Positions 738 to 14,491 of a stretch of 14,491 nucleotides of DNA are shown here, piece by piece (position 1 is the stretch's first letter; each line of letters begins with the position of its first letter). This DNA is from a virus. The translations under genes were made by a program, and so were the position numbers. Under the pieces are notes generated by a model, which saw only the letters and a list, made by a program, of their open reading frames with translations, did not search any database and was not told the DNA's origin. The stretch lies in the UHGV virus genome UHGV-0168752; one strand, given 5' to 3'.

Positions 738-776
738 TAAAAATAAATTCACCCTCTCCCCAAGCGGAGAGAGGGA
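738..776 (-). terminator. Rho-independent terminator
   Basis: GC-rich hairpin (plus-strand arms 752-761 and 766-775, loop AAGC, one mismatch) followed on the minus strand by TGAATTTATTTTTAC; sits just 3-prime of the CDS ending at 781. Confidence 0.65.
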
Positions 777-780
777 AAGT

Positions 781-1287
781 TTACAGTACGTTTTCGTCGC
801 GATCGTCTACTAAAATAGATGTAATTACATAACGTGCTAAACGACTGCGTGCTTCTTCAGTTTCTTCTTCAGAAGGTAGCTGCTCACCTGCGGGTGCGCA
901 CAAGGTTAGTCCAGATTCACGAAGTTGTTCGGTATAGTCTTCCACAGCTGTGTCGAACGTACCACGGATACCTGCTACTGCGTCCATAATTTCGTCATTC
1001 GGAATAATGGATTCTTTTAGCACAGCGTGCGCGTCTGTAGGCTCCACCATTTGTAGATTCTGTTCTACCAGCATCGCCTGTTTCGCTAGGCTGTCGGTGA
1101 TAAAGCAAGACAGAATCTTTTCGAAATCGTCTAACGAGAATTCGGTGTCTTCAGATGCACCGGTAATCAATTGCCCGTAGCGATTAAAGAATTCTTTACA
1201 ACGTGTTTCGTAGTCAGCTTCTAAGTCGCGAACGCCGAGATCAAAATCGTGCTGCTCCAGCTGATTAAAATCCAGAGTCTCTTTCAT
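781..1287 (-). CDS. Strongly acidic hypothetical protein (168 aa); candidate DNA-mimic or anti-restriction protein
   Basis: ATG at 1287 with GGAGA upstream. By my count about 39 Asp/Glu versus about 14 Lys/Arg, including a PSEEETEEA cluster. Last gene of the Dam operon. Confidence 0.7.
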   Translation of the reverse strand: MKETLDFNQLEQHDFDLGVRDLEADYETRCKEFFNRYGQLITGASEDTEFSLDDFEKILSCFITDSLAKQAMLVEQNLQMVEPTDAHAVLKESIIPNDEIMDAVAGIRGTFDTAVEDYTEQLRESGLTLCAPAGEQLPSEEETEEARSRLARYVITSILVDDRDENVL

Positions 1288-1325
1288 CTCTAAGTCTCCA
1301 GTTAAGAGGTCATATTACCTGCTGG

Positions 1326-1553
1326 CTAGAGTGCCAACGTTAACCCGGTATGGGTTTGTACTGAACCAACACCATCGCGTGCTTTTGCTTTGGCGATGAG
1401 TTTGTCAATCACGCGCTGATGGCTACGAGTAATGACTTTACCTGGATAACCGATAATTAGCGCGTTCTCATCATTAATTACCGCCGAGAATTCATTATCG
1501 CCTGCGACGTAAGTAATCTTTTTGTCTTTGGTTACAATACGTTTGATTTCCAT
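1326..1553 (-). CDS. Small hypothetical protein (75 aa)
   Basis: ATG at 1553 with AAGGA 6 nt upstream; starts immediately after the stop of the preceding gene. Confidence 0.6.
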   Translation of the reverse strand: MEIKRIVTKDKKITYVAGDNEFSAVINDENALIIGYPGKVITRSHQRVIDKLIAKAKARDGVGSVQTHTGLTLAL

Positions 1554-1562
1554 TCATTGTCC

Positions 1563-2336
1563 TTAAAAGATAAAATGGCCAGTTAGTGCTTCTACTTCAA
1601 CACCAGACATTGCTGGAGGTGCTGAGTATGGAAAAGTAAGACGCACGGTTGCACCCTTTAAATACGCAATACGGTAGTATGTGGTCAAGAGCGCAATCCC
1701 GTAAGTACAGTCGTTATAGAAGAAACCTTCGGTTGCAAACGTCTTTTCGTTGATTTTCGAATAGACTAAGATACCTTCAACTTTACCGTCTTTACGACAG
1801 CACAGCCCTTCAGCAGCCCCAATAGCTAACAATCCCAGGCAGTATGTATCCAAACTGACATTAACCACCTTAGGAATCGTAAACGTTTCTTCTAACGTTA
1901 GAGATTCAATATCAACTACATCAGGTAAATCGGTGCGAACTTCGGGTTCTTCAGTAAACGTCAGGTCATAGTCGATGGACGTCGGCTGCATACCCAAATA
2001 CGCCATTAACTGGTCACGACGTTTTAGGTCGTTGGCAGGGTATGTGACATCAAACATCTCCACTTTTAACAAACGTTTGAGTTGTGCGAAATTAATTTTC
2101 TTCTTCGCAAACACAACGATTGCCGACATGTAGAAAAACTTACCATCGGCACGACCGGAGAAGATTCCTTGTAGCTGATTCGTGTTCGAAAGAATGATAA
2201 AGGTCGGATCTTCAGACTCGCGAATGACGTCCTTTTCCAATAACCCTTTCCGTACACGGGTTAGTGAAACCATTTTCCCGTCCACGCCAATTGCTAAATG
2301 GTCATTACGATAATCGTGGATATCCACTATGCGCAT
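1563..2336 (-). CDS. Hypothetical protein (257 aa), translationally coupled to Dam
   Basis: ATG overlaps the Dam stop (TAATG at 2334-2338). No motif I recognise. Confidence 0.7.
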   Translation of the reverse strand: MRIVDIHDYRNDHLAIGVDGKMVSLTRVRKGLLEKDVIRESEDPTFIILSNTNQLQGIFSGRADGKFFYMSAIVVFAKKKINFAQLKRLLKVEMFDVTYPANDLKRRDQLMAYLGMQPTSIDYDLTFTEEPEVRTDLPDVVDIESLTLEETFTIPKVVNVSLDTYCLGLLAIGAAEGLCCRKDGKVEGILVYSKINEKTFATEGFFYNDCTYGIALLTTYYRIAYLKGATVRLTFPYSAPPAMSGVEVEALTGHFIF

Positions 2337-3151
2337 TAGAGCACTCCCAGTAATTCAGTCACTGTTTTCCGAGCGGCACCGGACGCACCCATATAGCGAC
2401 CGACCTCAATACTACGCCACTCAAAACCGTAATAAATTTCTCGGGTGAGTAGGGTGTCTGCATTTGACAACACGACACTGTTGCCACGTTCCACCTGCTG
2501 CTGTAGTAACTTGGCTAATTCTCGATGATCCGTTTGTGAGAATTCTTTACGGTGGTATTGCGCATGTTTCGCGGTATCCGATAACGGAATATAAGGAGGA
2601 TCGGCATAAATCACGGCATCCTCAGGTGTCCGCGCCAGTACGGAACGAAAGTCTTCACAAACGATTTCCAAATAATCCACTTCTGCGCAACGTTTAGCCC
2701 AGTCTCGAATTTCTTCTAACGGGTAATAAACACCGTTCGGGTAACGTCCAAACGGAACATTGAACCCACCACTACTGTTATAGCGACACATCCCGTTATA
2801 GCCGTGACGCATTAAGTATAAAAACATCGCTGCCCGTTCAACGTCTGACATCGATTTACCGCTATTAAACAGCTCACGACGTTCCATATACCTTACTGTA
2901 GTATTACCGTCTAAGAACAATGGCTGAGACGCAGCAATCAGTTCTTCAGGTTGTTCACGTGCAACACAGAGTAAGCGTATCAGATCAGGGTTAGAATCTG
3001 ATAGAATATACCGGCTATAATTCGTATTTAGGAAGACAGAGCCTGCACCCACAAACGGTTCTACAAACGTTGTACGTTTAGGTAAGACCTTTTGTAATTC
3101 TCCTAAAACACGGGTTTTCCCACCCATCCATTTAATAATCGGTTTCCGCAT
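2336..3151 (-). CDS. dam: DNA adenine (N6) methyltransferase, Dam family
   Basis: Translation has KWMGGK near the N-terminus, FVEPFVGAGSVF (SAM-binding FxGxG), NGMCRYNSSGGFNVPFGRY and the catalytic DPPY, colinear with E. coli Dam and T4 Dam as I recall them. Confidence 0.9.
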   Translation of the reverse strand: MRKPIIKWMGGKTRVLGELQKVLPKRTTFVEPFVGAGSVFLNTNYSRYILSDSNPDLIRLLCVAREQPEELIAASQPLFLDGNTTVRYMERRELFNSGKSMSDVERAAMFLYLMRHGYNGMCRYNSSGGFNVPFGRYPNGVYYPLEEIRDWAKRCAEVDYLEIVCEDFRSVLARTPEDAVIYADPPYIPLSDTAKHAQYHRKEFSQTDHRELAKLLQQQVERGNSVVLSNADTLLTREIYYGFEWRSIEVGRYMGASGAARKTVTELLGVL

Positions 3152-4130
3152 TATATCCGCCTTGTAACGATGACACTTCGTCGCCTAACACTAATTCGAC
3201 CCGGTTTTTCCGACGCTCCCAGCTGACAACATCATCGTCGCGTACTAAAACAAATTCGTATTCGTAGGGACGGAATTTAAACAAATCTACGGCTAGGTGT
3301 CTAAATGCAGGGTTGTTATTGTAACACCCTATTTCTAATGGCGCTGCCGTGGTCGATGCAATCTGTAAAGCACGATACAACAAGGCACGGCCAATCCCAC
3401 GACCACGATGCGTTTCACTTACCGCAATGGCTTTTAATTCACACTCGTTGAGATTACGCAATTTGACTTGAACCACACCCACAACGTCATTACCGTCCAT
3501 CCAAACGTAGGTGTGGTGATTGATGTGACGTACTAACTCCACCAACGTTTCGACTTGTGGCATGATTTGCCGAGAACGGCCTACAGGGTCAGCATTGATG
3601 TTTTCAACAACACTGGTACCCAACAACAGCATAAGTTGTTCACGTTGTGCAGCGTTTAAATCTTTATAAAGATCGCCAGAAATATTCTTCACGTTCGTCG
3701 GTAATGTAACATCCAATAACGTACGTGTCCCTAAGCGGTATGAGGTCTGTGTATGCCTAAATCCGAAGTCATTAAGCTCAGCAATTTCTTCCACGCCTCT
3801 GGCAATTCGATTGAGGTATGTAAAACCAGTATAGTCCAGTACCAGTAAAAGGTTCAGTTTGTTCAAACACCCTGGTACAATTTCGTGCATATACAAGCAG
3901 TGTAACGTTGGGTCACCGTAAATATGTTTTGTGATGATAAACCCTTGAATCGTTTTTCCTTTTTGTAAAGAGAACGTATTCAGCTCAGTATTACACAACG
4001 CCTCGCGAATCACAGCACCGTTAGGACCCGTTAAACATGCCTGAAGTTGGGGATTACGAATATCTCTTCGTGCTAAGCGTCCTACGGTTAAATCCAGAGC
4101 GGTACGTTCTATAGTCTTCCTAAAAGCCAT
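3132..4130 (-). CDS. GNAT-domain acyltransferase-like protein with N-terminal extension (332 aa; possibly tandem GNAT)
   Basis: C-terminal region contains VSETHRGRGIGRALLYRA, matching the GNAT motif A signature (R-x-x-G-x-G/A). AAGGAG 8 nt upstream of the ATG at 4130. The 3-prime end overlaps the Dam start by 20 nt. Confidence 0.7.
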   Translation of the reverse strand: MAFRKTIERTALDLTVGRLARRDIRNPQLQACLTGPNGAVIREALCNTELNTFSLQKGKTIQGFIITKHIYGDPTLHCLYMHEIVPGCLNKLNLLLVLDYTGFTYLNRIARGVEEIAELNDFGFRHTQTSYRLGTRTLLDVTLPTNVKNISGDLYKDLNAAQREQLMLLLGTSVVENINADPVGRSRQIMPQVETLVELVRHINHHTYVWMDGNDVVGVVQVKLRNLNECELKAIAVSETHRGRGIGRALLYRALQIASTTAAPLEIGCYNNNPAFRHLAVDLFKFRPYEYEFVLVRDDDVVSWERRKNRVELVLGDEVSSLQGGYNAETDY

Positions 4131-4180
4131 GTTAATTGCTCCTTAAAAGGTCGTCTCAAAACAATACGCTAAAGCTGTAA

Positions 4181-4216
4181 AAACAAAAAAAAAGAAAGGG
4201 GAACCGAAGTTCCCCC
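4181..4216 (-). terminator. Rho-independent terminator
   Basis: Perfect 7-bp stem GGGGAAC/GTTCCCC (4198-4204 and 4209-4215) with a 4-nt loop (TTCG on the minus strand), followed on the minus strand by TTTCTTTTTTTTTGTTTTT. Confidence 0.8.
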
Positions 4217-4223
4217 GTAATAG

Positions 4224-4811
4224 TTAACCGAACAGTTTACGATGTAAATGGGGGAACCAATTACATATTTCCTTTTTGTAGTTCCGTCCGGTTTTATCCC
4301 AATCGTCTTCTTTGAACAGACTTTCGTCAAAATTCAGATACGATTCGAATTGTTTGTTGAGCATGGTATGTTGCTCTGGAAAACGTACCAGAATTACCGC
4401 GTCCTTTTTATCGAGTGTTTGGACATTCAGAACTTCTGGCGTAAACTTGAAGTAAGCGTTCGCGTCCACCCGTAACCAGTTGGCAAGGCAGATAACATCT
4501 TGTTCGAGCTGGTTCAATATTTCGAACACGTCAGAATCGGGCGCTTCCATGGTTAAACGTAGTAGTAACTTTAACAAATCGTTACCGCTCAGCAAGTCGT
4601 AATGATGTCGTCCTGAGGTGAGACTCACGAGTTCGCCTTCCCATAGCCAGGCCATAAAGTGACAGTTGAAGGGACGGTAGTGATAAATCCGACACTCGCT
4701 AAAAGGACTCAATTTAAGGGTGAGAATAGGGTCTGCTAAAGCGTGTAGCGTGACTGGTGGGAAGATCGCTTTAGGAAACGTAGTGTCTTCTGGTAAGGTT
4801 TCTGTTGCCAT
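4224..4811 (-). CDS. Hypothetical protein (195 aa), co-transcribed with the XRE regulator
   Basis: ATG at 4811 with AGGAG 9 nt upstream. No recognisable motif. Confidence 0.7.
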   Translation of the reverse strand: MATETLPEDTTFPKAIFPPVTLHALADPILTLKLSPFSECRIYHYRPFNCHFMAWLWEGELVSLTSGRHHYDLLSGNDLLKLLLRLTMEAPDSDVFEILNQLEQDVICLANWLRVDANAYFKFTPEVLNVQTLDKKDAVILVRFPEQHTMLNKQFESYLNFDESLFKEDDWDKTGRNYKKEICNWFPHLHRKLFG

Positions 4812-5232: not shown

Positions 5233-5304
5233 GGTTATACTCCTTTAGGTTAACAAGTCGGTGTAAAGAGTTAATCGCAACTCTCACTTAAGTAATATCT
5301 ATCT

Positions 5305-5344
5305 GTGAAAAAATAAAATACAGGTACCACCTAACGGTGGTACC
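5305..5344 (-). terminator. Rho-independent terminator
   Basis: Perfect 9-bp stem GGTACCACC/GGTGGTACC (5323-5331 and 5336-5344), 4-nt loop, followed on the minus strand by TGTATTTTATTTTTTCAC. Confidence 0.8.
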
Positions 5345-5351
5345 TAAGCAG

Positions 5352-6709: not shown

Positions 6710-7081
6710 TTAGAACCCCTCGAGAACAGCTTTCACAAATTCGTAAACCGTGCGGCGGTGTTCTTCAAGCGGATAACCAAACTTCGCATAATCGTCGTTC
6801 CAGACAATCGGATAAAGATCGCCTCCACAACTCAGATACCCTTTACGTAGCAGATAATAATCCAGCCCAACTCTAAAATTTAAAGACAGGCTGCCTTGTT
6901 TACTGCATACGTGCAACTGAATCGATTTCACACCGTCGTGTGTTGGCGTTTCAATCGTTTCTGCATACAATACATCCGAGCAACCTTCTAGTGTGCTAAC
7001 GACGTCTCTAAGGTTGTTATTGGCGTCGATGGTTGCGGCACGAAGCGCGTCGGTGTATTGCTGAAGTTCTCGATGGAACAT
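6710..7081 (-). CDS. Hypothetical protein (123 aa)
   Basis: ATG at 7081 with AGGAGA about 9 nt upstream; the start lies 94 nt inside the preceding CDS in another frame. Confidence 0.55.
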   Translation of the reverse strand: MFHRELQQYTDALRAATIDANNNLRDVVSTLEGCSDVLYAETIETPTHDGVKSIQLHVCSKQGSLSLNFRVGLDYYLLRKGYLSCGGDLYPIVWNDDYAKFGYPLEEHRRTVYEFVKAVLEGF

Positions 7082-7620
7082 CCTGCTAATCTCCTGTCTC
7101 TACCGTAAGGCAGAGGAAATGCTTTGTGTTCGAACTCTACCACAACATAAGCCGGGTAGAACAAAAGGTATTTATAAAACGTTGCCAACGTTACGTCTTT
7201 CGGGGTCGCCAGAAAATAATTAAGGTCGGGTGCGTCAGGAAATGCAAAATACAACCCTGTATAAATCTGACCGTTATACAACCCATTAAACGGTGTCACT
7301 ACACACTTCGGATGGGTGGGTTCGACGTGTAACCATCGACTACCGACGTGATAGACGCCCCGTAACGTGCCATTTCGGGTCTTCCCTAAATAACGACAAC
7401 GGATATTCTTTTCCCATGCGCTACGCTGGGTTGGAGAACCGCGCTGGACAAAACGACTTAACGCTTCGGGTGTAAAGTAATCAAAAATGGCTGTGGGTAA
7501 ATACCAACACGTTTTATCGATTCGTACCACTCTCCAGCCAGGACGAAAACCTACAGCGTAACGCTCTACACCAAAAGTATATCTAGACCCGTCGTGAAAC
7601 GGTACGAACCTTGCGCTCAT
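6988..7620 (-). CDS. Hypothetical protein (210 aa)
   Basis: ATG at 7620 with AAAGGAAAT upstream, 1 nt after the GNAT stop. Aromatic-rich; no recognisable motif. Confidence 0.65.
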   Translation of the reverse strand: MSARFVPFHDGSRYTFGVERYAVGFRPGWRVVRIDKTCWYLPTAIFDYFTPEALSRFVQRGSPTQRSAWEKNIRCRYLGKTRNGTLRGVYHVGSRWLHVEPTHPKCVVTPFNGLYNGQIYTGLYFAFPDAPDLNYFLATPKDVTLATFYKYLLFYPAYVVVEFEHKAFPLPYGRDRRLAGCSIENFSNTPTRFVPQPSTPITTLETSLAH

Positions 7621-7621
7621 T

Positions 7622-8092
7622 TTAGATTTCCTTTATCATTTCCCTGCACTCTGTACGAAAACCCATTTTCTCGTACACACTGATGGCTTTAATGTTATTG
7701 TCCAACACATCTAAAGACATCCAGCCACAACCCTTAGATTTTCCGTAGTCACGGACTTTATCCATAAGGGCACGACCGACCCCTTGTGAGCGCGCTTCCT
7801 CTAATACATAGTAATTCCCAATATAGACGAAGTTGTCTTTAGCACAGGAACCCAACGAGAACGTCATAAACCCTAAGAGAGTATCGTTATCGTCAACGGC
7901 GCACGCACACAGATAATCTTGTGGCCAAATCTCTTCCAGTCGTTCTATCGGGTTAAAGGTATCACGACCGGTGAGTTGGCTGATACGCACTTTCTCTTCA
8001 GCGAATAAGTGGTTATGTAAACGTAATACGTCAGCACCGTAACGTTTACCGTATTTACTGTCGGGTTTAAGGATAATAAAGACGCGCATCAT
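7622..8092 (-). CDS. GNAT-family N-acetyltransferase (156 aa)
   Basis: Motif A RSQGVGRALMDKV followed by AISVYEKMGF, typical GNAT core. Start overlaps the upstream stop (ATGA). Confidence 0.8.
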   Translation of the reverse strand: MMRVFIILKPDSKYGKRYGADVLRLHNHLFAEEKVRISQLTGRDTFNPIERLEEIWPQDYLCACAVDDNDTLLGFMTFSLGSCAKDNFVYIGNYYVLEEARSQGVGRALMDKVRDYGKSKGCGWMSLDVLDNNIKAISVYEKMGFRTECREMIKEI

Positions 8093-9222
8093 TTAACCTC
8101 GACTAATGATAAACGGCACCACTCCAGCAACCCTTCTGCAACGCGCACTAATGCGGTTGTGAAAGCGTCCTCTAAACGTAGTGCATTTTTATAACGCACC
8201 GTAGCATCACGTAACTCACGTCCTTCAAGCGATTTGAGTTCTTTGCGCATACGTTGAATTTCGTCATAAATTCCCGTATACCCAACACTGCGACGTTTTG
8301 TGCCACGCTGACGTAAGGCACGAATAATGCGATCTACGGCTTCTAACGCCTTACCAATCTCGTGTAAGTTCAACGATTTAATGGTATCTCCGTAATCACC
8401 GTCGCGCGCAATCGCCCATTCGATTTTACCATTCTGATGCTCAACCACAACCACGTTACCCGGCCACGGATACGCTTTTACAGATTTAAAAGGATCGATA
8501 ATGCCAAGTAAGCCTGCGCTTCGCTTAATTGCCCAGCTCGTAGAACGACCTACTCTTTCTAATCCGCTTTCGGTAACTTTCTTACTCTTACCGATAATCG
8601 TACGCGTTTTAACCGTGTACTCGTTAACCATCCCATCGATAGCGTTCAAGTTCTTACTGAAATCAATACACGCTTCAACATTCGGTTTGTCTTCTAAACA
8701 AACTTTTGTTGTCCAGCTTCCTGTTTCACAGTCACGTGGTTTTAACGTGTCTTTGTCACCAATTAAACTTAAGCGTGAATTTAACTTCTGTAGCTTGCGT
8801 TCTAACGACGCGGCTTTGGACGTTGCTTCTTTCAGTTCATTAATGACTTCTTTACCGGCAGCTTCCGCGAAATCGACAAAACGTAACGCCAGTTGCTTAG
8901 AATGCTTACCTGCAAACTTACCAGACGCTTTGGCTCCTGCCACCGCCGCCTTTCCAGCAACCCGACCAACACCCTTAACCGCTCTACCTGCTGTTCGTGC
9001 TACCGCTTTACCTACCCCTGCATAGGGTTCCGTGTCCGCAACGAATTGTGCACGATCCATCATCGCTGCGGATTCCTGTGCGACCTGAATATCGTCTAAT
9101 GCCCAGCGTTTTCGGATAGCAACAACTGCTGGATAGTTATCTTTAACGTTAAGCGATTCTAAAGCGACTAATCGATCGTAGTCATCGCAAAGGACTTCTA
9201 AATCGGAATCTAATGTTGACAT
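8089..9222 (-). CDS. Hypothetical protein (377 aa) with a Lys/Ala/Gly-rich low-complexity segment
   Basis: ATG at 9222 with AAAGGA upstream. Internal segment AGVGKAVARTAGRAVKGVGRVAGKAAVAGAKASGKFAGK; the remainder looks helical and charged. Confidence 0.7.
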   Translation of the reverse strand: MSTLDSDLEVLCDDYDRLVALESLNVKDNYPAVVAIRKRWALDDIQVAQESAAMMDRAQFVADTEPYAGVGKAVARTAGRAVKGVGRVAGKAAVAGAKASGKFAGKHSKQLALRFVDFAEAAGKEVINELKEATSKAASLERKLQKLNSRLSLIGDKDTLKPRDCETGSWTTKVCLEDKPNVEACIDFSKNLNAIDGMVNEYTVKTRTIIGKSKKVTESGLERVGRSTSWAIKRSAGLLGIIDPFKSVKAYPWPGNVVVVEHQNGKIEWAIARDGDYGDTIKSLNLHEIGKALEAVDRIIRALRQRGTKRRSVGYTGIYDEIQRMRKELKSLEGRELRDATVRYKNALRLEDAFTTALVRVAEGLLEWCRLSLVEVK

Positions 9223-9820: not shown

Positions 9821-9848
9821 TTGTCACCTCCATACTGAGGTCGTAAAG

Positions 9849-9894
9849 TGAAAAAAAAAATAAAATAGGAGAGAACCTCAAAAGGTTCTCTCCT
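9849..9894 (-). terminator. Rho-independent terminator
   Basis: 10-11-bp stem GGAGAGAACC/GGTTCTCTCC (9868-9877 and 9884-9893), 6-nt loop, followed on the minus strand by a T tract (plus-strand A run 9849-9866). Confidence 0.85.
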
Positions 9895-9907
9895 AACGTT
9901 ATCGTTA

Positions 9908-11454: not shown

Positions 11455-11934
11455 TTAATAAATCTTATCCGCAACAGAGAGAAAGATGGGGGTGTTTTCA
11501 ATAAAGTCCACCAAATATCCTTCTTCCGGCGGGGCGTATGACGAATCAACGTTACCGTTCGTCATACGAAAATACCGACGAGAGTCACTGGCAATAAACC
11601 AACGGTCTATTTGGTAGCCCTTTTTGGAAAAGAAACACAAGCCGTCAATGTTTGAAGGATGGACACGACACATCACTATTTGGCGGTCAGAATTAAGTTG
11701 AACGTACTTCAGTAAGAAAGAACCTACGCCGCTACGACGAGAACCTTCAGCAACTACTAAATAAATAAGATTCCCTGGTTCCCAGATTGCAATTCCGTGA
11801 GTAATATCATCTTCAACGGCTAACGTGATCCTAACCGGTGTTTCCCGGATTGAATTTAAGTCTTTAATGTATTCACGTAATTCAGGAAATTTAGCGGAGA
11901 TTTTATCTTCGGTAATATCTAACTGTTGCATCAT
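11455..11934 (-). CDS. GNAT-like acetyltransferase (159 aa), tentative
   Basis: LVVAEGSRRSGVGSFLLKYV matches the GNAT motif A pattern R-x-x-G-x-G. Start overlaps the upstream stop (TAATGATG). Confidence 0.5.
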   Translation of the reverse strand: MMQQLDITEDKISAKFPELREYIKDLNSIRETPVRITLAVEDDITHGIAIWEPGNLIYLVVAEGSRRSGVGSFLLKYVQLNSDRQIVMCRVHPSNIDGLCFFSKKGYQIDRWFIASDSRRYFRMTNGNVDSSYAPPEEGYLVDFIENTPIFLSVADKIY

Positions 11935-12624: not shown

Positions 12625-12664
12625 GTAAAAATAAAAAGAAGAAACCTCTACCCGAAGGTAGAGG
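12625..12664 (-). terminator. Rho-independent terminator
   Basis: Perfect 8-bp stem CCTCTACC/GGTAGAGG (12645-12652 and 12657-12664), loop TTCG on the minus strand, followed by TTTCTTCTTTTTATTTTTAC. Confidence 0.8.
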
Positions 12665-13249: not shown

Positions 13250-13893
13250 TAACGTTTCCTCCGACGCCTTCTCCGCCTGGAGGTCTTCGGCGACTTTTGT
13301 TTAGGCGGTAGCAGGCTGTTTAAATTTAACAGATTTACCCTGACGAAAATGTTTCCCACCGCCACGGCATCGATGCTATGCTCGTCTAACGTTGTAATAT
13401 CAAACAAAGCGTGTTCACGATACAGTTTGGTCACGGCCCGAAACATATCGGTTTTATCCGTTCCCTTTGCTTCCACACCAACGAATGATTTTACAATGAT
13501 AGGATTGAAACCGTGTAAGATTTTCTCCGGGTAAATGTCCCACAGGGCACGTCGCAACATCAGCTGTAATTCAACACCTGATTCGTACGCGGAGAGTTTT
13601 GCTCTCCGCATAAACGGGGTTTCTGTTGCAACGAAGGTTGGGCAAGCAATCCGAAGAAATTCACGGTAACAAGCTTCGAGCTTAACGAGTCGATCGTCAC
13701 GTTTACCGACACACTCTGCGAACGCATTTGGATGCGTTGGGTCTAATACATGCATGGTATCAGCCCAAACTACTTCGGCTTGATCGCTGCCGTATTCCCA
13801 ATCCAATACCGCCATACCAAGATGGCTCGTACCGGGGTCTATTGCCGCGATTCTCACCATCTTATCTGGAAGTCTCGGCTCGGGTATCAACAT
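13249..13893 (-). CDS. RuvC-like Holliday junction resolvase with Arg-rich C-terminal tail (214 aa)
   Basis: IAAIDPGTSHLGMAV (compare RuvC ILGIDPGSRVTGYGV), FVATETPFMRR (compare FAIEQVFMAK) and DEHSIDAVAVG (compare DAADALAIA). C-terminus SRRRRRRRKR. Start overlaps the upstream stop (TAATG). Confidence 0.8.
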   Translation of the reverse strand: MLIPEPRLPDKMVRIAAIDPGTSHLGMAVLDWEYGSDQAEVVWADTMHVLDPTHPNAFAECVGKRDDRLVKLEACYREFLRIACPTFVATETPFMRRAKLSAYESGVELQLMLRRALWDIYPEKILHGFNPIIVKSFVGVEAKGTDKTDMFRAVTKLYREHALFDITTLDEHSIDAVAVGNIFVRVNLLNLNSLLPPKQKSPKTSRRRRRRRKR

Positions 13894-14448
13894 TAATTCG
13901 CTGTCCCCAGGAAGAACGGCGCAGGCTGACCGATACGAATGGTCAGTGACAGTTTATCATTCGTCTGCGCCAGGTTAGTAAACATCGAGATGTAATACAG
14001 CGCCTGGACACCAATCGCTTCGGTGTAACTGAACTTAGACCCAGTTGCGGAATCACCCGACGTGACTTGGTCTAACCCGGAGCAGAGTGCCAGTTCGGAG
14101 ATAATCGAACTACGCGGACTACCGCGCATGATACTCGTCACGTTCATGTATTCCTGAACATCAAAATCCGTCCACGGAATCACCAGGTCAGCACCGGATT
14201 CAACATAACGACCATCAGGAATCGCAACGGTACCGTCATCATCATAATCGTAATCCGGCAATACTTTCGGTACCGGGTTCAATTCTGTATCGGTGTACAC
14301 GAAGTCTTCGACGGTCTCAACACCGTTCTCACGTTTGATATCGTAGTCTGACGTTTTAACCGCGCGCATATCGATGCGTTTTAAGTAATACGCCCAGTAT
14401 TCACGCTTGTTAAACGTTTCCAAAGTACGGAAAGCGTAGTTCTTACGC
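13893..14448 (-). CDS. Hypothetical protein, 5-prime truncated (C-terminal about 185 aa only)
   Basis: Open frame runs into the adapter at 14449; the apparent N-terminus MCIRDRR is translated adapter, so the real start lies beyond the contig end. No recognisable motif in the remainder. Confidence 0.6.
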
Positions 14449-14491
14449 CTGTCTCTTATACACATCTGACGCTGCCGACGACTCCTTACGT
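14449..14491. other. Illumina Nextera adapter (sequencing artefact)
   Basis: CTGTCTCTTATACACATCT (Tn5 mosaic end) followed by GACGCTGCCGACGA (reverse complement of TCGTCGGCAGCGTC), then 8 nt CTCCTTAC and GT. From memory the 8-mer is the reverse complement of a standard i5 index and GT begins the P5 complement. Confidence 0.95.

Follow-up and report, generated by a model that had tools for sequence, protein, structure and literature searches.

The DNA analyzed here is a 14,491-nucleotide (nt) stretch of the UHGV virus genome UHGV-0168752 (the window, i.e., the whole stretch at its full length), and our subject is a block of five genes within it in which a Dam-family DNA methyltransferase lies directly behind the gene of a GNAT-type acetyltransferase. 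All genes of the window lie on the minus strand. In the order of transcription, and with the protein families named after those of the jumbo phage SPN3US, the features of the block and its borders, in amino acids (aa) or base pairs (bp), are:

4178–4216, minus strand: upstream intrinsic terminator, which closes the preceding unit (stem 4216–4197, 8 bp, UUCG loop, T-run).
3132–4130, minus strand: 332-aa open reading frame (ORF) of the GNAT protein (PHROG 8663, SPN3US gp104 family), probably two-lobed.
3294–3527, minus strand: predicted catalytic C-terminal GNAT lobe of that protein (aa 202–279, PF00583).
3168–3816, minus strand: segment of the GNAT gene (~aa 106–321) without nucleotide similarity to the close relative L009; its flanks are 68–80% identical.
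2336–3151, minus strand: 271-aa ORF of the Dam family, a predicted N6-adenine DNA methyltransferase (PHROG 56).
1563–2336, minus strand: 257-aa ORF (PHROG 9941, SPN3US gp106 family), a putative degenerate two-lobed GNAT-fold paralogue.
1326–1553, minus strand: 75-aa ORF of a basic protein (isoelectric point, pI, 9.6; PHROG 7896, SPN3US gp108 family).
781–1287, minus strand: 168-aa ORF of an acidic protein (PHROG 8221, SPN3US gp109 family).
738–775, minus strand: downstream intrinsic terminator (stem 775–752, 10 bp, A/T-rich tail).

A first-pass annotation of this DNA had placed the five genes in this order between two terminators, and the ORFs, the hairpins and their z-scores bear it out. The upstream hairpin folds at −13.9 kcal/mol (z = −3.4 against shuffled sequences) and the downstream one at −19.5 kcal/mol (z = −4.4), with no shuffle folding equally well in either case. 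Inside the block no strong terminator-like site was found, the internal matches being weak stems in coding sequence; one of these (3386–3407, minus strand) was rejected because it corresponds to the G/C-rich codons for the coenzyme A (CoA) loop RGRGIGR of the GNAT protein. With two strong flanking terminators and no strong internal one, a single transcription unit is a reasonable reading, and the five genes plausibly form one. Each is preceded by a Shine-Dalgarno-like sequence (for the 332-aa gene, AAGGAG 8 nt upstream). The overlaps among the first three genes are present as first described—the stop codon of the 332-aa ORF (3134–3132) falls 20 nt within the Dam ORF (ATG at 3151), and in the TAATG at 2338–2334 one base is common to the Dam stop and the 257-aa start—and had suggested coupled translation, but in the window as a whole 10 of 23 gene junctions overlap or lie ≤1 nt apart. 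Gene overlap is thus the local norm and no sign of a special relationship.

By its sequence, the 271-aa product genuinely belongs to the Dam family; its catalytic and recognition residues are intact, and methylation of GATC is its predicted activity. The original Dam call is upheld by PF02086 (E = 5.2e-57, 193.9 bits; cutoff 22) and TIGR00571 (254 bits; cutoff 114.85), and E. coli Dam (2g1p) can be aligned with the protein over its full length (E = 5e-65). Its score against NF008152, the E. coli Dam equivalog model, is 257 and thus below the cutoff of 441, so that it is no E. coli-type equivalog. Specifically, the S-adenosylmethionine-binding FxGxG motif reads FVGAGS (aa 32–37), the catalytic DPPY occupies aa 184–187 (2591–2602), and in the 2g1p alignment K9, Y119, N120, R124, P134, R137 and Y138 of E. 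coli Dam are conserved and L122 is replaced by methionine; these eight positions are what we take to be the GATC-contact residues of the published E. coli Dam–DNA structure, and T4 Dam presumably also has methionine at the L122 equivalent. The counterpart of the K9 DNA contact is K7 of the window protein, which is included only if translation begins at the upstream Dam start (ATG at 3151), and that start is therefore required. Between genera Dam is the best-conserved protein of the block (50–72% identity). As no nuclease partner is present, the enzyme would be an orphan, as the methylases of phages T4 and P1 are: it resembles E. coli, T4 and P1 Dam in its FxGxG, DPPY and DNA-contact residues, and the T4 and P1 enzymes also in having no partner nuclease, but differs from all three in its origin, since its phage is related to the nucleus-forming jumbo phages, among which genes for DNA modification are reported to be uncommon (PMC13282480).

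The C-terminal GNAT domain that had been assigned to the 332-aa protein is confirmed by PF00583, which matches aa 202–279 (E = 3.2e-12, 47.2 bits; cutoff 20.7), and PF13508 also scores above its cutoff (37 bits against 27). This lobe carries an acetyl-CoA pyrophosphate loop of the Q/R-x-x-G-x-G/A type, R242-G-R-G-I-G247 (encoded at 3390–3407), and among 10 members of the 332-aa family G247, R248, L250, N273, H278 and L279 are invariant or almost so; in the Erwinia orthologues the first glycine of the loop is substituted (KRIGR, KRHGR). By sequence, the best match of the family profile in the Protein Data Bank (PDB) is the tandem GNAT VipF (6wqb). In MshD and VipF one of the two lobes is catalytic, and the 332-aa protein is like them in having its CoA loop only in the C-terminal lobe.

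The 257-aa protein had been listed as an unknown whose function was a matter of inference only; the second part of that description stands, whereas the first gives way to a fold, since AF2, Foldseek and hhalign together identify the protein, at the level of models, as a degenerate two-lobed GNAT-fold paralogue. An AF2 model built with family members (pLDDT 79.5, pTM 0.70) contains the identical strand–helix pattern twice, i.e., two consecutive GNAT-fold lobes. Foldseek searches of the PDB with this model returned VipF first (E = 4e-9), with VipF and MshD as the best matches and Eis-like proteins, glucosamine N-acetyltransferase and WecD as other top structural analogues, and the model resembles aminoacyl-tRNA-dependent GNATs too. 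The check by structure search that the first-pass annotation had proposed thus yields tandem GNATs for the 257-aa protein, as the sequence profile does (VipF) for the 332-aa family. In BFVD the protein's own orthologues came first (TM 0.82–0.85), followed by the 317-aa orthologue of the 332-aa protein from Erwinia phage Kwan (E = 1.8e-11, 311 columns, TM 0.68), and Derbicus gp103, likewise a 332-aa orthologue, was also matched (E = 7.9e-12). When the 332-aa and 257-aa families were compared by hhalign, they aligned over 202 collinear columns (E = 2e-4), while unrelated neighboring families, taken as a control, gave probabilities of 0.1–0.4%. Because the closest non-orthologous structural relatives of the 257-aa protein are 332-aa orthologues, and because the acetyl-CoA loop is absent from both lobes in its family, a degenerate paralogue of the 332-aa GNAT appears the best description. 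The family is small, with five members in a profile search of 1.84 billion clustered representative proteins, and a joint GNAT and 257-aa profile from seven phages returned only three proteins, all known already.

From the match between the 257-aa model and the Kwan BFVD model, the collinear hhalign alignment and the rank of VipF as best PDB sequence match, we infer that the 332-aa protein, too, is two-lobed with a catalytic C-lobe. Two lobes per chain are also found in the tandem GNATs VipF, MshD, MAB_4324 and Eis, from which the window family differs in its divergent lobe arrangement (6–12% identity, TM ~0.5) and in having, in the 257-aa protein, a paralogue without any CoA loop. The assignment of fold and paralogy to the gp106-like family is new here, and PHROG 9941, formerly “hypothetical,” can now be annotated as paralogous to the neighboring acetyltransferase, with a degenerate two-lobed GNAT fold.

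The window had no nucleotide-level match in the phage collection; at the protein level it is collinear with SPN3US and with Erwinia jumbo phages (Machinavirus, Wellingtonvirus). The common order runs from a small acetyltransferase, a DprA-like protein, an internal head protein, a second small acetyltransferase, thymidylate kinase and a helix-turn-helix (HTH) protein to the GNAT gp104, the Dam gp105 and gp106, gp107, gp108 and gp109 (SPN3US numbering), so that the conservation of gene order on which the first-pass annotation had proposed to judge the cassette is present in SPN3US gp104–gp109, Machinavirus, Wellingtonvirus and metagenomic relatives. The blocks of SPN3US, Machinavirus, Wellingtonvirus and Erskinevirus are like that of the window in gene order, gene sizes and PHROGs (8663, 56, 9941, 7896 and 8221), and the flanking genes for thymidylate kinase, an HTH protein, the internal head protein and a small GNAT are likewise common to these phages and the window. 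The window differs in that its proteins are 22–67% identical to those of the SPN3US and Erwinia blocks and in that it is without the second (and third) degenerate paralogue, gp107. One subgroup of these extra gp107-like proteins of SPN3US and the Erwinia phages aligns with the 257-aa family by hhalign (probability 56%, E = 1e-4), and the other subgroup had no clear relation to the 257-aa family in the same comparison. The internal head protein of the window (8089–9222) is of the phiKZ type (PF12699), and SPN3US encodes a chimallin homologue (PMC9365700), which groups it with the nucleus-forming phages. Metagenomic contigs carry almost identical copies of the cassette; close relatives of its proteins, at 93–95% identity, are encoded on contigs of ≤225 kb and also on one that was deposited under the name Shigella sonnei. 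These patterns point to an operon passed down vertically in a jumbo phage that is SPN3US-like and related to phiKZ. The window is a new, fairly distant member of a block that is known, and partly annotated, from SPN3US and dozens of relatives; gp104–gp109 were not discussed in the SPN3US literature searched.

Within this conserved order, Dam and the GNAT are found apart. The Erskinevirus phages Asesino, phiEaH2 and Stratton carry the closest Dam (71–72% identical to that of the window), followed by genes of the 257-aa, gp107, 75-aa and acidic types, but the GNAT gene and its upstream neighbor are absent from the locus, and tblastn of the whole genomes with two divergent GNAT queries found no GNAT. 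Derbicus provides the reciprocal case: two adjacent GNATs of the 332-aa family (hhalign probability 98%, each with a Pfam GNAT domain) directly follow thymidylate kinase, i.e., occupy the syntenic place, and tblastn of the complete 224-kb genome did not find Dam. Going by these genomes, Dam and the GNAT are separable in nature and need not be functionally tied; the conserved feature appears to be an array of two-lobed GNAT paralogues, with Dam inside the array in some lineages.

The two genes also change at different rates. Between genera the GNAT (21–30% identity) and the 257-aa protein (22–24%) are far more divergent than Dam. Against L009, identity is 82% for Dam, 91% for the 257-aa protein, 93% for the 75-aa protein and 86% for the 168-aa protein; for the GNAT it falls to 43% over the full length and to 28% within the catalytic lobe (aa 201–290). 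The 195-aa gene just upstream (4224–4811, minus strand) is more variable still: its products in three phages are 23–41% identical and differ in length (195, 223 and 227 aa), whereas the 257-aa proteins of these phages are 91–100% identical. This hypervariable island stems either from a hot spot of recombination where the operon begins or from diversifying selection, and neither is what one would expect of an enzyme evolving in step with Dam. The separability of Dam and GNAT and the hypervariable island are, like the paralogy above, new findings. The 195-aa protein itself had no Pfam or PHROG match. Separately, the ~215-aa proteins of Erwinia phages Kwan and Huxley gave a weak Foldseek match to the 257-aa model (E ~1e-6, TM 0.33–0.43); if they belong to the 4224–4811 family, that gene may be a further GNAT-like paralogue.

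We favor, at a probability of roughly 0.55 for the whole, the explanation that this is an inherited operon in which an orphan Dam lies within GNAT paralogues and in which the active GNAT works on a substrate other than DNA. Dam would methylate GATC sites of replicating phage DNA, to which host Dam presumably has no access inside the phage nucleus, and the sites that remain, once methylated, would no longer be recognized as unmethylated, e.g., by MutH or GATC-specific nucleases. By analogy with tandem GNATs, the C-lobe of the 332-aa protein would transfer an acetyl group from acetyl-CoA to an amine of a protein or small molecule bound in the interlobe cleft, not to DNA, and the 257-aa paralogue would be a non-catalytic partner that binds, regulates or acts as a decoy. 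The position of Dam among the paralogues would reflect gene-order history—insertion into, or retention in, a paralogue array—and the genes of the operon would be co-transcribed but functionally separable, with no single pathway.

The alternative put forward in the first-pass annotation was that the GNAT (perhaps with the 257-aa protein) modifies DNA bases together with or after Dam, as a Mom-like hypermodification or anti-restriction module. DNA modification by GNAT folds has precedent in Mom (PMC13219725) and in the predicted GNAT/ABC systems of jumbo phages, which in other groups also carry Mom-like genes (PMC7824862). Order is invariant and tight, and co-transcription with Dam probable, in Seoulvirus, Machinavirus, Wellingtonvirus and the window lineage, and the likeness of the 257-aa model to aminoacyl-tRNA-dependent GNATs would also suit a DNA modifier. 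Mom forms a dimer of single-domain subunits that carry an HTH-like insertion; it transfers glycine from Gly-tRNA(Gly) to adenine and depends on R111, S124 and R151 (PMC13219725). The 332-aa protein shares with it the GNAT superfamily fold, phage origin and the historical link to Dam, but belongs to a two-lobed family and keeps the CoA loop, which Mom, with Gly-tRNA rather than acyl-CoA as donor and one domain, does not use; when the GNAT family was compared with Mu Mom by hhalign, the probability was 0.1% (E = 0.61), and a PHROG search returned no Mom-type match at E < 0.01. The link between Mom and Dam in Mu is regulatory, through GATC sites in the promoter, and com is a translational activator. 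GATC is absent from 3672–4763 and hence from the operon leader (4131–4223), and no com-like gene, i.e., no small upstream ORF overlapping the 332-aa start, was found. Membership of the Mom family was rejected on these grounds (no homology, a different architecture and donor motif, no GATC in the leader, no com-like gene). Beyond Mom itself, Dam occurs without the GNAT in Erskinevirus and the GNAT without Dam in Derbicus, the catalytic lobe is 28% identical where Dam is 82%, the GNAT profile leads to the protein acetyltransferase VipF and the paralogue model to VipF, MshD and other tandem GNATs, and gene overlaps are commonplace. A Mom-like partner of Dam is thus unsupported, and we regard a DNA-modifying GNAT as very improbable here. 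Rated lower still is the far-reaching variant that a two-lobed GNAT, its loop-less paralogue(s) and Dam form a second GNAT-based nucleic-acid modification system with a mechanism distinct from that of Mom; such a system could, e.g., acylate bases or N6-methyladenine sites in the phage nucleus, with the paralogue as an aminoacyl-tRNA-dependent transferase or DNA-binding subunit.

The remaining alternatives concern the substrate. The active GNAT might be an anti-defense or host-takeover effector that acetylates a host protein, with the dead paralogue as decoy or adaptor, which is a sharper version of the explanation that we favor. AcrVA5 acetylates Cas12a, Rac the RNA polymerase alpha subunit and VipF a translation factor; AcrVA5 and Rac (LUZ19/phiKMV), as phage-encoded acetyl-CoA-dependent GNATs acting on host proteins, are plausible functional analogues, although they are small, single-domain enzymes for which no homology beyond the superfamily was found or looked for. 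An effector would accord with the fast evolution of the GNAT family (21–30% between genera) beside a conserved Dam, with the location of the GNAT C-lobe and gene 4224–4811 in an island that is hypervariable or mosaic when near-identical phages are compared, with the effector VipF as best PDB relative and with documented phage GNATs that target host proteins (PMC7552054, as cited in PMC7824862). It has, however, no known target and no match in the PADLOC library, Erskinevirus phages do without the gene, and hypervariability could reflect recombinational mosaicism at the operon boundary rather than selection; an effector role specified to this degree therefore seems to us possible but doubtful. 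Acetylation of a small molecule (polyamine, aminoglycoside-like antibiotic, amino sugar or thiol) in a metabolic or protective role is the less likely of the two. Many of the top analogues of the 257-aa model are tandem GNATs that act on small molecules (among them MshD, Eis-like proteins, glucosamine N-acetyltransferase and WecD), and a working spermidine acetyltransferase exists elsewhere in the phage group (the presumed Caitlin homologue of the 156-aa GNAT described below; PMC9992855), but the GNAT had no equivalog-level NCBIfam match to small-molecule GNAT families, with all scores far below the cutoffs, and such rapid sequence change is unusual in a metabolic enzyme. Fast, patchy evolution and the resemblance to VipF thus lead us to prefer a host or defense protein over a small molecule as the target, and this choice is the weakest step of our argument.

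Several observations weigh against the inherited-operon explanation as a whole. No substrate is known for the 332-aa GNAT, and its two-lobed fold rests on a paralogue model, an orthologue BFVD model and weak profile similarity; the AF2 model of the protein itself, made from four sequences, is poor (pLDDT 47.7), and a profile of the N-lobe only found no GNAT relative in PDB or Pfam. The order GNAT–Dam–257-aa is invariant and tightly packed in four genera and metagenomic relatives, which also fits a functional link. Finally, GATC counts do not follow Dam. Computed for the whole window, for loci L001–L006, L009 and L012 and for the Derbicus genome (L013–L017), the ratio of observed to trinucleotide-based expected GATC is 0.54 in the window and 0.17–0.44 in its relatives, and the whole genome of Dam-less Derbicus, at 0.21 (194 sites against 940 expected), matches the Dam carriers. 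GATC depletion is thus clade-wide and independent of Dam carriage.

These findings are useful for annotation and experiment design rather than surprising. The natural knock-outs (Erskinevirus without the GNAT, Derbicus without Dam) are ready comparators for the roles of Dam and of a fast-evolving acetyltransferase in this phage group, which is related to the nucleus-forming phages, for which DNA modification has been thought largely unnecessary. The results also counsel caution: where jumbo-phage genomes are as strongly collinear as these, neither gene overlap nor a conserved gene order should be taken as evidence of a shared pathway.

For the 75-aa protein, from the last two genes of the block, no PDB relative was found. 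The 168-aa protein is strongly acidic, as first noted (pI 4.1, net charge −25), and had no match in Pfam, NCBIfam, PADLOC or PDB; a role as DNA mimic (Ocr/ArdA) was considered, but these searches showed no homology to a known mimic family, and only acidity is in common with them. In Derbicus the gene of this type lies ~8 kb from the rest of the block.

Outside the block, the window encodes two further single-domain GNATs of 156 and 159 aa (7622–8092 and 11455–11934, minus strand), which brings its GNAT-fold genes to four. The SPN3US counterpart of the 156-aa protein (YP_009153389) showed no spermidine acetyltransferase activity, while the candidate of Erwinia phage Caitlin assayed in the same study, presumably the homologue, was active (PMC9992855). 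Two adjacent genes of the Derbicus record (132692–134927; L015 32692–34927) are annotated as radical SAM superfamily and might have a part in some other route of nucleic-acid or metabolite modification in that phage. Between ORFs 6988–7620 and 6710–7081 of the window there is an overlap of 94 nt (6988–7081), which may be a true overlap, a wrong start codon or a recoding site; for the syntenic pair the overlap is 55 nt long in both SPN3US and Asesino, and 73 nt in Derbicus.

A sigma-70 promoter scan found 8 sites against 10.0 expected from shuffled sequence, as is to be expected of a phage with its own RNA polymerases. The heptamer TTTTTAC has no overall enrichment in the window (6 found, 6.0 expected); at 737–743, 4177–4183 and 12625–12631 (minus strand) it stands directly after a strong terminator hairpin and T-run and before the next gene, and TTTTTCAC-like sequences likewise follow terminators in the intergenic regions 5233–5351 and 9821–9907. 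TTTTTAC may thus be part of a phage promoter set back to back with a terminator. The right end of the window (14449–14481, minus strand) carries TCGTCGGCAGCGTCAGATGTGTATAAGAGACAG, the read-1 transposase adapter of Illumina Nextera at full length. The 190-aa ORF at 13893–14465 therefore owes its “MCIRDR...” start to an adapter artefact, and that gene is truncated at the contig end.

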